Source: Phycisphaerales bacterium (GTDB taxonomy: Bacteria; Planctomycetota; Phycisphaerae; Phycisphaerales; SM1A02). Taken from it: DNA of 63,184 nucleotides. Both the position numbers and the translations under genes were made by a program. The DNA lies in NCBI GenBank assembly GCA_030748155.1, contig JASMMN010000024.1, positions 1 through 63,184 on the forward strand, in the 5' to 3' direction. Shown piece by piece: positions 7,802-10,910 of this stretch. Numbering within the stretch: position 1 is the stretch's first letter; each line of letters starts with the position of its first letter. The notes below the pieces were generated by a model. It ran no database searches, had not been told where the DNA came from, and saw only the letters and a list, made by a program, of their open reading frames with translations.

Positions 7802-8824
7802 ATGAAAGCAGCAGTATTCCACGGCGCCGACGAAGGCGTGAGAGTCGAAGAGATCCCGGTCCCGCATGTTGGACGGGACGAGGTGCTCGTCAAGGTTGCC
7901 GCCTGCGGGGCCTGCCATACCGACCTGCACTACATCGAGCACGGCGTGCCGACCTTCAAGGATCCGCCGCTCGTGCTTGGCCACGAAGCGTCCGGTATCG
8001 TCGAGGAAGTCGGCATCGATGTCGAACATCTCACCGCGGGGCAGAGGGTGCTTATCCCCGCGGTACTCACCTGCGGCAAGTGCAGGTTTTGCCGCATGGG
8101 CAAGGAGAATATCTGTGCCGACATGAAGATGCTCGGCAACCACTTTGACGGCGCCTACGCCGAGTATGTCTGCGTACCCGCCAAGGATGTGCTTGATCTG
8201 CCCGAGTCGATTCCGCTTGCCGAGGCATCGATCATTGCCGACGCGTTATCGACGCCGTACCACGCCGTCAAGAACCGAGCACAGGTGCGGGCCGGCGATT
8301 CCGTGGCCGTCTTCGGATGTGGAGGTGTTGGCATCAACGCAGTGCAACTTGCGGCCGCGGCTGGCGCTTACGTGATTGCGGTCGATATCAGTGAGCAGAA
8401 ACTTGAGTGGGCCAAGGAACTCGGCGCGGCGCAGACCATCAACGCCCACCAGGTCGATCGGGTGAGCAAGGCAATCAAGAAGATGACTGGTGGTGGTGTC
8501 GATATCGCCATGGAGGTGATCGGTAACCCGCGGACGATCGAAGAAGCGTTCGAGAGCGTGCGAATCGGTGGTCGGATGTGCGTCGTCGGGTACACGCATG
8601 AGAAGATCAACATTGTCGCCGGGAAGATCATGTTCAAGGAGATGGAAATTGTCGGTTCGCTCGGATGTCCTCCGGGCGAGTATGTCCCGCTCATTCGCAT
8701 GGTCGAGGCCGGGAAGATCGATGTATCTCGCCTCGTGACGCACCGGTTCTCACTTGACGATATTCAGGGCGCATTCGATGTAATGAAGGACGGCTGCTCC
8801 CTGCGGTCGATCGTAATTCCGTGA
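7802..8824 (+). CDS. Zinc-dependent alcohol dehydrogenase family (340 aa); candidate 6-hydroxycyclohex-1-ene-1-carbonyl-CoA dehydrogenase (Had-like)
   Basis: Motifs CGACHTD, GHEASGIVEEVG, structural-Zn CGKCRFCRMGKENIC and FGCGGVGINAVQ. Confidence 0.85.
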   Translation: MKAAVFHGADEGVRVEEIPVPHVGRDEVLVKVAACGACHTDLHYIEHGVPTFKDPPLVLGHEASGIVEEVGIDVEHLTAGQRVLIPAVLTCGKCRFCRMGKENICADMKMLGNHFDGAYAEYVCVPAKDVLDLPESIPLAEASIIADALSTPYHAVKNRAQVRAGDSVAVFGCGGVGINAVQLAAAAGAYVIAVDISEQKLEWAKELGAAQTINAHQVDRVSKAIKKMTGGGVDIAMEVIGNPRTIEEAFESVRIGGRMCVVGYTHEKINIVAGKIMFKEMEIVGSLGCPPGEYVPLIRMVEAGKIDVSRLVTHRFSLDDIQGAFDVMKDGCSLRSIVIP

Positions 8825-10065
8825 GCGACACGACGGTGAAGCGAGTACCCATCGAGTCGCAGAAGCGCCTTCGAGGCCTGATGCGTGACTACTTCGTTGA
8901 CCTCGACGCGGCGGCCAAAGACACTGATCGCCGCGTTGCGTGGTGTACATCGGTCGGTCCTACGGAGATTTTGACCGCTTTCGGCTTCGACGTGTTCTTC
9001 CCGGAGAACCACGGCGCCCTCCTCGGCACGCGGAAAGTCAGCCACAAGTTGATCCCCCGGGCGGTGGGGGCGGGGTACTGCCCCGAGACCTGCTCTTACA
9101 TGAACAGCGATATCGGCGCATCGCTCAACGGTTGGAGTCCGCTGCAGGACATCTACGGCATAGACGGACCGCCCGCGCCCGATCTGCTCGTGTACAACAC
9201 GAACCAGTGCCGGGAAGTGCAGGACTGGTTCAAGTTCTTCTCGACACGGCACGACGCTTCAATTCTGGGGGTGCGGCCACCGCTGTATCTCGGAGAAGTC
9301 ACCGACGAGCATGTCACCTTCGTGAAGGGGCAACTTCGGGAACTCATCGGTGCGATCGAGCGTCAGTTCGAATTGAAACTCGATGAGGCGAAACTCGAAG
9401 AGTCCGTCGCGAAGTCGAGCAAGGCCTGTTCGCTTTGGCGGGAAGTACTCGAAACGGCCCGCCAGAGACCGGCCCCACTGAGTTTCTGGGACGGCTTGAT
9501 CCTGATGGCGCCGGTGATACTGATGCGTGGAAGCGATATGGCCATCGACTTCTACGAAGAAATGCTTGCTGAGATGAATCAACGGCTTGCTGGTGGCGTC
9601 GGAGCCGTGCCTGATGAGCGGTTTCGCATCTACTGGGAAGGGATGCCCGTCTGGCCCCGGATACGGGAACTTTCCGAGAAGTTCTTTGATCTTCGGGCGG
9701 TCGTGGCGGCGAGCACCTATTGCAACTCGTGGGCCTTCGCCGACTTCGAGGGCGGCGACCCGCTTGAGTGGATGGCGCGGACGAGTCTGGAGATCTTCAT
9801 CAATCGCGATGAGGTGTACAAGCAGCAGTTCCTGTCCGAGAGGTTCGACGAGTTTTCGATTGACGGCGCCATCTTCCACAACGCCCGGACATGCCCGAAC
9901 AACACCAACTCACGCTTTGGAATGGCTCAGCGGGTTCGTGAGGAGATGGGCCTGCCGGTTCTTGTCCTCGATGGAGACCTGACCGATATCCGGTTCTTTT
10001 CAACCTCGCAGTCGATGACCAATATCGAAGCCTTCATTGAGCAGTTGGAGGCACATCGCTCATGA
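8821..10065 (+). CDS. 2-hydroxyacyl-CoA dehydratase / benzoyl-CoA reductase (HgdAB/BcrBC) family protein, single copy (414 aa)
   Basis: Family-typical [30 protein letters not shown]. Seven Cys including C42, C87, C91 and C130. GTGA overlap with the upstream stop. Confidence 0.8.
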   Translation: [414 protein letters not shown]

Positions 10066-10910
10066 GTGGCGTCCTCTTTGCCGGTATCGACGCTGGATCC
10101 TCGGCCACCAAGTGTGTCATCATCGACGATAGGGGCACATTGGTCGGGAAGAGCGTCGTGTCCTCGGGGTTCAGTTACGAGGATGCGGCCAAGACGGTGC
10201 TGGGTGAGGCGTTGGCCGAAGCCGGGAGGTCGTCTGGGGACATCGAGGCATGTATCTCCACTGGGTACGGACGGGAGTGGGTTCCAGATGCCGGGCGGAA
10301 GATCACCGAGATCACCTGTCATGCCCGTGGCGCTCTTGAGTGGTATCCGCAGGTCCGCAACATCATCGACATCGGTGGTCAGGACACCAAAGTCATCCGT
10401 CTCGACACGACCGGGCAGATTTCTGACTACCGCATGAACGCCAAGTGCGCCGCAGGAACCGGAACATTTCTCGAATCCATCGCCGTGAAACTCGGCATGA
10501 CGCTTGGCGAACTCGACGAGCTCGCCGCGCAATCTGAGAAGCACGCCGTCATCAACAGTTATTGCACCGTCTTCGCCGGGACCGAGGTGCTTGAGTGCAT
10601 CAAGGCCGGCGAGGATCCCAAGGACATTGCCCGCGGATTGTTTCACTCGATCGCCTCGCGGCTCTTTGAGATGATTGTCTCCCATGACGGACCGGTGGCG
10701 GCGACGGGCGGCGTGGTGGCGCACTGCGGCTCGATGCGTGTGGCGCTCAACGAAGTGCTTGATGATGAAGTGTTGCTTCCGCCGCTTCCTCAGTTCGCGG
10801 GGGCCTTTGGTGCCGCGCTCATGGCCAACTCCGGCCACGCACACGAGCCGTTTGGCGAGCGGCCTGCGCCGCCGTGCCGGTTCTCGACCGAAGGGAGCGG
10901 CCAATGTTGA
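10062..10910 (+). CDS. BcrAD/BadFG/HgdC-family ATPase (electron-activating component, 282 aa)
   Basis: Motifs GIDAGSSATKCVII, DIGGQDTKVI, NAKCAAGTG and YCTVFAGTE (cluster-ligand Cys positions). ATGA overlap with the upstream gene. Confidence 0.88.
   Translation: MSGVLFAGIDAGSSATKCVIIDDRGTLVGKSVVSSGFSYEDAAKTVLGEALAEAGRSSGDIEACISTGYGREWVPDAGRKITEITCHARGALEWYPQVRNIIDIGGQDTKVIRLDTTGQISDYRMNAKCAAGTGTFLESIAVKLGMTLGELDELAAQSEKHAVINSYCTVFAGTEVLECIKAGEDPKDIARGLFHSIASRLFEMIVSHDGPVAATGGVVAHCGSMRVALNEVLDDEVLLPPLPQFAGAFGAALMANSGHAHEPFGERPAPPCRFSTEGSGQC

Follow-up and report, generated by a model that had tools for sequence, protein, structure and literature searches.

A two-gene alpha-subunit and ATPase module without a beta subunit in a Phycisphaerales bacterium: a candidate simplified 2-hydroxyacyl-CoA dehydratase

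The 2-hydroxyacyl-CoA dehydratases and the class I benzoyl-CoA reductases form one superfamily of oxygen-sensitive iron-sulfur enzymes. The dehydratases have been described to act by a ketyl-radical mechanism (PMC7317905). Cluster content differs among the described systems: the double-cubane cluster protein (DCCP) has two double cubanes, the reductase BzdNO has one double cubane and one [4Fe-4S] cluster, and the 2-hydroxyacyl-CoA dehydratase (HAD) has one [4Fe-4S] and one [4Fe-5S] cluster (PMC11971306). In BzdO the [4Fe-4S] ligands are Cys95, Cys128 and Cys380, accompanied by the catalytic Glu65, the thioester-binding Tyr97 and His131, and Trp46 occupies the space of the lost subcluster; the double cubane of BzdN has six ligands, Cys36, 73, 100, 263, 293 and 327 (PMC11971306). 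The six ligating Cys of DCCP belong to a seven-Cys motif, CX19CX18-19CX29CX166-170CX32-34CX32C (PMC7317905). When DCCP is in complex with its ATPase (DCCP:DCCP-R), the cluster of the latter is located on the acceptor's two-fold axis, at approximately 17 A from both acceptor clusters (PMC9351452). Here we describe a module of one catalytic gene and one ATPase gene in a Phycisphaerales bacterium (Planctomycetota; assembly GCA_030748155.1). It lies on contig JASMMN010000024.1, whose positions 1 to 63,184 on the forward strand constitute the window analyzed.

The pairing of an alpha-type catalytic subunit with an ATPase recurs in hundreds of anaerobic bacteria and archaea, and it probably represents a known enzyme type in a simplified form that has not been described. 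The function that we favour, and that we place slightly on the probable side of even, is that of a beta-less (R)-2-hydroxyacyl-CoA dehydratase, putatively homodimeric, with a dedicated activator ATPase. No description of a beta-less or homodimeric dehydratase clade was found in the literature searched, which left most subscription journals outside its reach. The two genes of the module are as follows.

8821..10065, plus strand: alpha-type catalytic subunit of 414 amino acids (aa), GTG start, Pfam HGD-D
10062..10910, plus strand: HgdC/HadI-type ATPase (activator) of 282 aa, ATG start, Pfam BcrAD_BadFG

Neither open reading frame (ORF) is a chance ORF, since the first matches HGD-D (PF06050) with an E-value of 5.6e-59 (residues 45-409 against profile positions 3-342 of 342) and the second matches BcrAD_BadFG with 1.3e-53. 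At its 5' end the 414-aa gene shares the four letters GTGA with an upstream Zn-dehydrogenase gene, whose TGA stop they contain along with the GTG start; at its 3' end it shares ATGA with the ATPase gene, in which the ATG start of the latter runs into its own stop. Both ORFs, the ATGA coupling and the seven Cys of the 414-aa protein are all as placed by the first-pass annotation, made earlier from the sequence alone. The likeliest start of the gene 3' of the ATPase is ATG 10904, just before the ATPase gene ends. Because ends and starts overlap from the Zn-dehydrogenase through the alpha and ATPase genes to this downstream fusion gene, the four appear to be translationally coupled. The 4-nt overlap of alpha and ATPase genes is also present in the called genes of loci L001, L003 and L004. 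The GTG start is favoured over a shorter 394-aa call because residues 1-20 are conserved across orthologues.

The window is its own reverse complement with 0 mismatches (centre 31592/31593), leaving 1..31592 as the unique part. This palindrome is almost certainly an assembly fold-back (hairpin) artefact in which each feature is doubled, and the minus-strand copy of the pair at 54364..52275 is therefore an artefact and no second locus. Apart from the 414-aa gene, the unique sequence has HGD-D genes only in a BcrC/BcrB-like pair (17988..20553), which is followed by its two ATPases (20557..22193). A tblastn search of the window found no second hidden HGD-D gene except this reductase pair and the mirror-image copies.

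The 414-aa protein resembles HadB more than any other described subunit. Among the NCBIfam models it scores 192 bits with HadB (NF052455, cut-off 750, thus below equivalog level), 139 bits with BcrB (TIGR02260, cut-off 486), 88 bits with BzdO (TIGR03191, cut-off 449) and 54.8 bits with double_cubane (NF040772, cut-off 350, residues 162-409 only). A phmmer search of the PDB gave HadB at 1.4e-44, MbdO at 1e-30, BzdO at 5e-22 and DCCP at 1.6e-3, with no beta-type chain within the E-value limit of 0.01. The ranking was unchanged with a profile of 19 orthologues (HadB 2.1e-54). The AlphaFold (AF2) model of the monomer (pLDDT 77.6, pTM 0.81) was compared with the PDB by Foldseek, and the TM-scores were 0.81 for HadB, 0.74-0.76 for MbdO/BzdO, 0.68-0.70 for DCCP and 0.62-0.65 for HadC/MbdN/BzdN. 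Compared with the reductase subunits of the window, the protein shows 25% identity to the BcrB-like one and no BLAST match to the BcrC-like one. Because HadB leads by both sequence and predicted fold and the beta-type subunits come last, the protein is classed, on sequence and model, as a catalytic alpha-type subunit of the superfamily, with the predicted order of likeness HadB > MbdO/BzdO > DCCP > beta-type subunits.

The predicted cofactor site is consistent with this class. The seven Cys are residues 42, 87, 91, 130, 203, 301 and 358. In HMMER alignments C91, C130 and C358 fall on BzdO C95, C128 and C380 and on the HadB Cys, E62 falls on BzdO Glu65 and Y93 on BzdO Tyr97; the position of the reductase-specific His131 of BzdO is Val133. 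Nearly all of about 100 full-length alpha-type representatives have E62, C91, Y93, C130 and C358, as do 89-90 of 90 family sequences. The pattern supports a single putative [4Fe-4S] cluster held by C91, C130 and C358, which would leave one open iron.

The first-pass annotation had proposed a DCCP-like protein with enough Cys for a six-Cys cluster site that might be aligned to the DCCP ligands. The Cys of the 414-aa protein do not match the spacing of the seven-Cys motif. A Cys is present at the C87 position in 14 of the 90 family sequences and at the C203 position in two, so that neither is conserved, and the sixth double-cubane ligand position (DCCP 'vnCaC') is Ile327, with Ile in 88/90. Only C42 and C301 fall at distal-ligand positions. 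Both are extra Cys specific to the family and are conserved (C42 in 90/90, C301 in 84/90 or 93%). C301 aligns with the DCCP ligand in 'eetCig', and C42 is at or beside the position of BzdN Cys36 and DCCP Cys75 in an alignment that is uncertain by one residue. The counterpart of BzdO Trp46 is Gly46. On the simplest reading C42 and C301 line the acyl-binding pocket, since C42 shares a strand face with Ser44 and BzdO Ser44 touches the substrate ring. Alternatively, the two may form a vestigial or alternative metal site. Tyr300, just before C301, is conserved and aligns with a conserved Tyr in MbdO; it may be the counterpart of the thioester-binding Tyr298 of BzdO, a residue with which it is not directly aligned. 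A further column, that of residue 392, has Cys ('DLRCYS') in 53 of the 90 family members and Phe in the window protein and its Phycisphaerae orthologues.

The alpha type is found far beyond the window. The best 120 clusters of the protein search were all at least 67% identical and all named Planctomycetota/Phycisphaerae metagenome-assembled genomes (MAGs). To find the wider family, a single genome for each GTDB species was scanned for motifs specific to it ([17 protein letters not shown]), which gave at least 591 loci. The best 80 of these include relatives of 47-53% identity from many phyla, both bacterial (Desulfuromonadales, Acidobacteriota, Alpha-/Gammaproteobacteria, Myxococcota, Bacteroidota/Ignavibacteria, Zixiibacteriota, Chloroflexota) and archaeal (Asgard archaea, Thermoplasmata). 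G. metallireducens GS-15 is without the catalytic subunit (PMC1924859), and for this reason 'Geobacter' MAG labels are to be taken loosely.

A panel of neighbour proteins was used to search 90 loci, and every ORF was compared with alpha- and beta-subunit profiles at maximum sensitivity. The beta-gene search took in the surroundings of each locus (+/-10 kb), and the counts refer to 86 non-redundant loci, of which 19 are orthologues and 67 are relatives at less than 60% identity. The ATPase gene adjoins the alpha gene in 18 of the 19 orthologous loci and in 46/67 relatives, and is elsewhere in the locus in 14 more of the relatives. No beta-type ORF lies within 1.5 kb of the alpha gene in either set (0/19 and 0/67). 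In 14 of the 19 orthologous loci a beta-type ORF is present about 8 kb away and is the reductase's own subunit. Seven relatives' loci have one, each directly beside a separate reductase-type alpha, and the other 60 of the 67 have none within the range searched. The search detects beta genes where they are present, because the locus of P0140, a classical relative of 36% identity with Val and Thr at positions 42 and 301, shows the order beta-alpha-ATPase. The self-contained two-gene module without a second catalytic subunit, as the first-pass annotation saw it, thus recurs in many phyla. A class I reductase is nearby in only 7/67 relatives. The data in part show and in part imply that the alpha type is a widespread clade without a beta subunit.

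One alternative is that the 414-aa protein is an ordinary heterodimer alpha subunit, with a beta subunit that is encoded elsewhere or with the downstream MbdN-like subunit shared by two alphas. All characterised dehydratases and class I reductases are alpha/beta heterodimers (PMC7317905, PMC11971306), and the Phycisphaerae do have one beta-type gene downstream in the same operon direction. The 60 distant loci without a beta-type ORF speak against such a partner. So does the history of the reductase among the orthologous clusters. The MbdN-like gene of these clusters is, relative to that of the window, either 35-40% identical (L001, L016, L017, L022, L023, L025) or 71-92% identical (L004, L011, L013-L015, L019), while the alpha gene stays at 67-71%. 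The two reductase types sit approximately 19.2-21.2 kb into each otherwise syntenic Phycisphaerae locus, which suggests that the reductase module was replaced within a conserved operon. Exchange of the reductase module with retention of the alpha gene argues against dependence on the Mbd beta subunit. The minimal loci of alpha plus ATPase (L006, L009) and the fusions of PanE with alpha also leave no room for a beta gene. The first-pass annotation had itself named a single-[4Fe-4S] subunit with a distant partner as the outcome that would overturn its proposal; the Cys pattern agrees with the first part, but no partner lies nearby in any locus. We consider the heterodimer explanation unlikely.

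Two groups of relatives have unusual organizations. P0123, P0131 (locus L010 4477-6783) and L080 6532-9183 are PanE-HGD-D fusions in which the three cluster Cys are replaced by Ser/Gly/Ser or Thr, and by sequence these are presumably cluster-less, non-radical derivatives of the family. In the Asgard loci L039, L051, L054, L065 and L083 (Promethearchaeota, Hodarchaeota) the alpha gene follows ligase-like and thiolase-like genes. The PanE-like and ATPase genes are together 6-9 kb downstream of it, with CCG/Fe-S, aldehyde:ferredoxin-oxidoreductase-like and MaoC-like genes in between. L054 and L065 additionally have a BzdN-like gene plus Had/Dch/Oah-like genes.

The 282-aa ATPase (X282) is well above the cut-off of the activase model (TIGR00241, 220.5 bits versus 125.4), and its PDB matches are about equal: 175 bits for MbdQ, 174 for HgdC, 168 for HadI and 148 for DCCP-R. 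Cys129 (NAKCAAGTG) and Cys168 (YCTVFAG) are in motifs common to BcrA/D-like proteins. We take these two, as in HgdC, to be the pair bridging a [4Fe-4S] cluster between monomers. Residues C115/C152 of DCCP-R (PMC9351452) give a further basis for their role as ligands. In a rough neighbour-joining tree of 91 ATPases (BLOSUM62 distances, no support values) X282 falls in a clade of 76 members, all ATPases from loci with the alpha type, and the BcrA/D-like proteins of the window group with the reductase ATPases. The tree agrees with the gene-order data. The X282 lineage is separate from the reductase ATPases and dedicated to the alpha type. The idea of X282 as a spare paralogue for the reductase, which the first-pass annotation had raised against its own proposal, was rejected on the separate clade and on the many loci without a reductase.

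The genes around the pair give hints of the substrate. The whole cluster of about 22 kb is conserved in five loci, beginning with a 4-hydroxybenzoyl-CoA-reductase-like molybdenum (Mo) enzyme and TetR, followed by Oah-like, short-chain dehydrogenase/reductase (SDR), Dch-like and Had-like genes and then by alpha, ATPase, the PanE-DUF2889-ligase fusion, thiolase, FadB-like and the class I reductase. The following neighbours are discussed.

406..4166, minus strand: 4-hydroxybenzoyl-CoA-reductase-like Mo enzyme (TIGR03194, TIGR03193)
7802..8824, plus strand: Zn-dependent alcohol dehydrogenase (ADH_N, ADH_zinc_N)
10904..14317, plus strand: three-domain fusion protein of 1137 aa (Pfam DUF2889, AMP-binding, AMP-binding_C_3)
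14314..15564, plus strand: thiolase (Thiolase_N/C; TIGR01930, 325 bits)
15589..18066, plus strand: FadB-like 3-hydroxyacyl-CoA dehydrogenase and enoyl-CoA hydratase of 825 aa (3HCDH_N, ECH_1, 3HCDH)
18063..22193, plus strand: Mbd-type class I aryl-CoA reductase, four genes (NCBIfam BcrC, BcrB, BcrA, BcrD)

The fusion protein, conserved as three domains in Phycisphaerae, consists of a PanE/ApbA-like domain (residues ~1-385), DUF2889 (~422-498) and an AMP-forming acyl-CoA ligase (~580-1137). The N-terminal domain has no Pfam or NCBIfam match and nothing significant in BLAST and phmmer comparisons with PanE examples. Its AF2 model (pLDDT 85) is matched by Foldseek to D-mandelate dehydrogenase and ketopantoate reductases (E 2e-13, TMt 0.64-0.78), and on this model it is a PanE-type 2-oxoacid reductase domain. 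These matches also show that the D-mandelate dehydrogenases belong to the PanE fold. The alignment keeps 'PNG' and 'DKAxxxxxxxN' motifs, which appear to resemble the catalytic Asn and Lys motifs of PanE. PanE-family enzymes convert 2-oxoacids to (R)-2-hydroxyacids. The fusion protein would accordingly be a candidate supplier of the 2-hydroxyacyl-CoA substrate. Its DUF2889 domain has conserved Cys, for example in 'PFPVC' and 'GCSH'. Both the thiolase, which would cleave 3-oxoacyl-CoA to acetyl-CoA and a shortened acyl-CoA, and the FadB-like protein, whose domains are in reverse order, are likely beta-oxidation partners with positions conserved in the orthologous clusters.

Similar partners accompany the nearest relatives outside the orthologues. 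P0122 (44% identity) has a domain of the PanE/ApbA ketopantoate-reductase family fused to the alpha domain, followed by the ATPase and a three-subunit xanthine dehydrogenase (XDH)-like enzyme with no reductase nearby. L008 encodes PanE, an acyl-CoA dehydrogenase, alpha, ATPase and an AMP ligase; L006 encodes alpha, ATPase and an ADP-forming acyl-CoA synthetase; P0133 is preceded by an aminotransferase gene. Among the 67 relatives' loci, a CoA ligase or ADP-forming synthetase is within 3 kb in 46, a PanE-like gene is present in 29, a thiolase in 26, at least two of the Had/Oah/Dch-like genes in 17 and an XDH-like Mo enzyme in nine. A crude and noisy clustering of neighbouring ORFs added MaoC-like, CCG/Fe-S, aldehyde:ferredoxin oxidoreductase and CoA-transferase genes, in few loci each. 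The association of the alpha type with PanE and CoA ligase indicates a 2-hydroxyacid substrate.

We propose the following working of the module. The alpha protein would act as an alpha2 homodimer, by analogy. The ATPase, likewise a homodimer, would have one [4Fe-4S] cluster between its monomers, held by Cys129 and Cys168. Again by analogy, it would sit on the alpha2 two-fold axis and pass an ATP-energised electron straight to the catalytic cluster. The geometry of DCCP:DCCP-R shows how an alpha2 enzyme could be served without a beta relay. The substrate carbonyl would bind at the open iron, the electron would reduce the (R)-2-hydroxyacyl-CoA thioester carbonyl to a ketyl radical, and this would expel the alpha-hydroxyl; after deprotonation the electron would be recycled and 2-enoyl-CoA formed. 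Upstream of this step the PanE-ligase fusion would convert a 2-oxoacid to the (R)-2-hydroxyacid and then to 2-hydroxyacyl-CoA. Downstream of it the FadB-like protein and thiolase would convert 2-enoyl-CoA via 3-hydroxy- and 3-oxoacyl-CoA to acetyl-CoA and a shortened acyl-CoA.

The choice of substrate is the weakest and most speculative step. Phenyllactyl-CoA and 4-hydroxyphenyllactyl-CoA are most likely, because the gene is surrounded by the 4-hydroxybenzoyl-CoA-reductase-like enzyme, the Mbd-type reductase and Dch/Had/Oah-like genes. Entry would be from arylpyruvates (Phe/Tyr); dehydration would yield cinnamoyl-CoA or 4-coumaroyl-CoA, from which benzoyl-CoA or 4-hydroxybenzoyl-CoA would be formed. 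A route from aryl-lactyl-CoA to benzoyl-CoA has been drawn hypothetically, not demonstrated, for a benzene-degrading sulfate reducer, for which a 'singular' FldB-like gene is also mentioned (PMC13416013). Taken as one proposition, a large uncharacterised clade of beta-less alpha2 enzymes with direct reduction by the ATPase, a C42/C301 metal or redox site that replaces the beta relay, and a path from arylpyruvate through aryl-lactyl-CoA and cinnamoyl-CoA to benzoyl-CoA has perhaps a minor chance of being right in every part.

Several points weigh against the proposed dehydratase. The AlphaFold model is of a monomer, and the homodimer is a putative one. A beta subunit may be encoded far from the locus, as the search took in loci and not whole genomes. 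C42 and C301 are unexplained by a plain three-Cys site and align with two of the three double-cubane distal-subcluster ligands. The ligase, which is closest to FadD-type models, and the PanE-like domain have nothing specific to aromatic acids. Classical dehydratase pathways use a CoA transferase and not a ligase, and tight 1:1 translational coupling to an ATPase gene is commoner among stoichiometric reductases than among dehydratases, whose activation is catalytic. Finally, 2-hydroxyglutaryl-CoA fits the glutaryl-CoA-dehydrogenase-like neighbour in the window equally well and is a live alternative substrate. Glutaryl-CoA-dehydrogenase-like genes also neighbour the pair in L008 and L053. This alternative includes the reverse, hydrating direction with ATP gain via the ADP-forming synthetase; in the window the AMP-forming ligase argues for the direction from acid to CoA-ester.

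An ATP-consuming reductase would spend ATP stoichiometrically in the reduction or reductive dehydroxylation of an aryl-, alicyclic- or enoyl-CoA. The aromatic setting of the gene, with its Dch/Had/Oah-like genes, class I reductase and 4-hydroxybenzoyl-CoA-reductase-like enzyme, suits this explanation as well, as do the tight operons of XDH-like enzyme, alpha and ATPase in L007, L040, L085 and L087. It would also be in keeping with the translational coupling of the alpha and ATPase genes and with Glu62, which is conserved like its BzdO counterpart. HadB, however, is closer than MbdO or BzdO in sequence and fold, and the equivalent of BzdO His131 is missing. There is no double-cubane beta subunit for electron storage (PMC11971306), and the company of PanE and CoA ligase speaks for a 2-hydroxyacid as substrate. 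A reductase is improbable to about the same degree as the heterodimer.

A double-cubane [8Fe-9S] protein that performs ATP-driven low-potential reductions with its own reductase is a far weaker candidate, and we regard it as very unlikely. The architecture of one catalytic and one ATPase gene fits it, and it would account for C42 and C301 at two distal-subcluster ligand positions and for Gly46 in place of BzdO Trp46. DCCP membership of the 414-aa protein was rejected on the family profile, the PDB search, the fold search and the Cys mapping given above, and the protein keeps two residues typical of CoA-ester enzymes, the Glu and the thioester-binding Tyr. Least probable of all is that the ATPase is a third paralogue for the downstream reductase and the 414-aa protein a non-functional relic. 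In favour of this, X282 shares 40% identity with the BcrA-like ATPase of the operon and 32% with the BcrD-like one. Against it, the pair keeps 67-91% identity among the Phycisphaerae and 47-53% between phyla without loss of any cluster ligand, most loci are without any reductase and the ATPase tree sets X282 apart.

The remaining neighbours provide context. The four-gene reductase, outside the two-gene module, is composed of an MbdN-like beta subunit (542 bits to MbdN 9g87_B, full length), an MbdO-like alpha subunit and two ATPases. Its great similarity to the 3-methylbenzoyl-CoA reductase of Thauera chlorobenzoica, for which a structure has been solved, is unexpected in a Planctomycetota MAG and suggests that the Mbd-type reductase was acquired horizontally. 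The Mo enzyme has fused [2Fe-2S] (gamma) and Mo (alpha) subunits of 961 aa and an FAD subunit of 292 aa. Its alpha subunit is a near-equivalog (TIGR03194, 902.5 bits versus a cut-off of 994.55), and the match to TIGR03193 is 176 bits. Its relatives adjoin the alpha and ATPase pair in L007, L034, L040, L045, L056, L082 and L085-L087. The canonical HcrB carries a Cys-rich [4Fe-4S] insert. The 292-aa FAD subunit has only two Cys and would be without an HcrB-type insert, so that the electron donor of the Mo enzyme may differ. The upstream Zn-dehydrogenase is closest to 6-hydroxycyclohex-1-ene-1-carbonyl-CoA dehydrogenase (TIGR03201, 256 bits, below the cut-off of 338).

The chemistry of the module is probably the known chemistry of the family; we infer its oligomeric state and substrate. 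The beta cluster is usually described as an electron relay or store. If the proposed dehydratase is correct, an activator can reduce the catalytic cluster directly, without beta, and the clade adds a state of two catalytic single cubanes with no accessory subunit. In the evolutionary scheme of PMC11971306 (Fig. 7) it would occupy the gap that separates the double-cubane proteins, which are homodimers, from the heterodimeric dehydratases and reductases. Mechanistic studies and biocatalytic alpha-dehydroxylation would gain a simpler system of two proteins, and the benzoyl-CoA pathway would gain an unrecognised entry. Genes of the alpha type are currently labelled generically or read as evidence for benzoyl-CoA reductase, and hundreds of genomes from anoxic sediments, oxygen-minimum zones and Asgard archaea could be better annotated.

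Three described systems bear comparison with the module. BzdO/MbdO (PDB 8S02, 9G87) have the alpha-type fold, the three Cys, the Glu and the Tyr in common with the 414-aa protein, and a bona fide Mbd-type reductase is encoded in its own operon. Unlike them, the protein is without a His131 equivalent and a double-cubane N/C-type partner, and it has one ATPase gene as opposed to two. It is, as far as its sequence indicates, no class I reductase subunit.

DCCP/DCCP-R of Carboxydothermus hydrogenoformans (PDB 6ENO, 7YYL) is encoded, like the module, by one catalytic and one ATPase gene. The putative homodimers of the module, acceptor and ATPase, would probably give it the symmetry of DCCP/DCCP-R, which sets an architectural precedent for electrons injected directly, with no separate relay subunit. 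DCCP groups with the beta-type subunits and has no known physiological substrate. The 414-aa protein, by contrast, is of the alpha type, keeps the CoA-ester binding features and sits in a CoA-ester pathway.

HadBC/HadI of Clostridioides difficile (PDB 3O3M/3O3N; related HgdAB/HgdC, FldBC/FldI and LcdAB/LcdC) includes in HadB the best match by sequence and fold. The two systems have in common the three-Cys [4Fe-4S] site, the conserved Glu and Tyr, a single-gene HgdC/HadI-type activator and a pathway logic that leads from a 2-oxoacid reductase through CoA activation to the dehydratase. The module differs in that it is without a HadC-type beta, at about 27% identity to HadB, and C42, C301 and Gly46 are specific to its family. 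It also has a ligase or ADP-forming synthetase in place of the CoA transferase and a PanE-type in place of the LdhA-type reductase. Although it fails the heterodimer feature and the equivalog thresholds, the 414-aa protein would be most like HadBC/HadI in its working.

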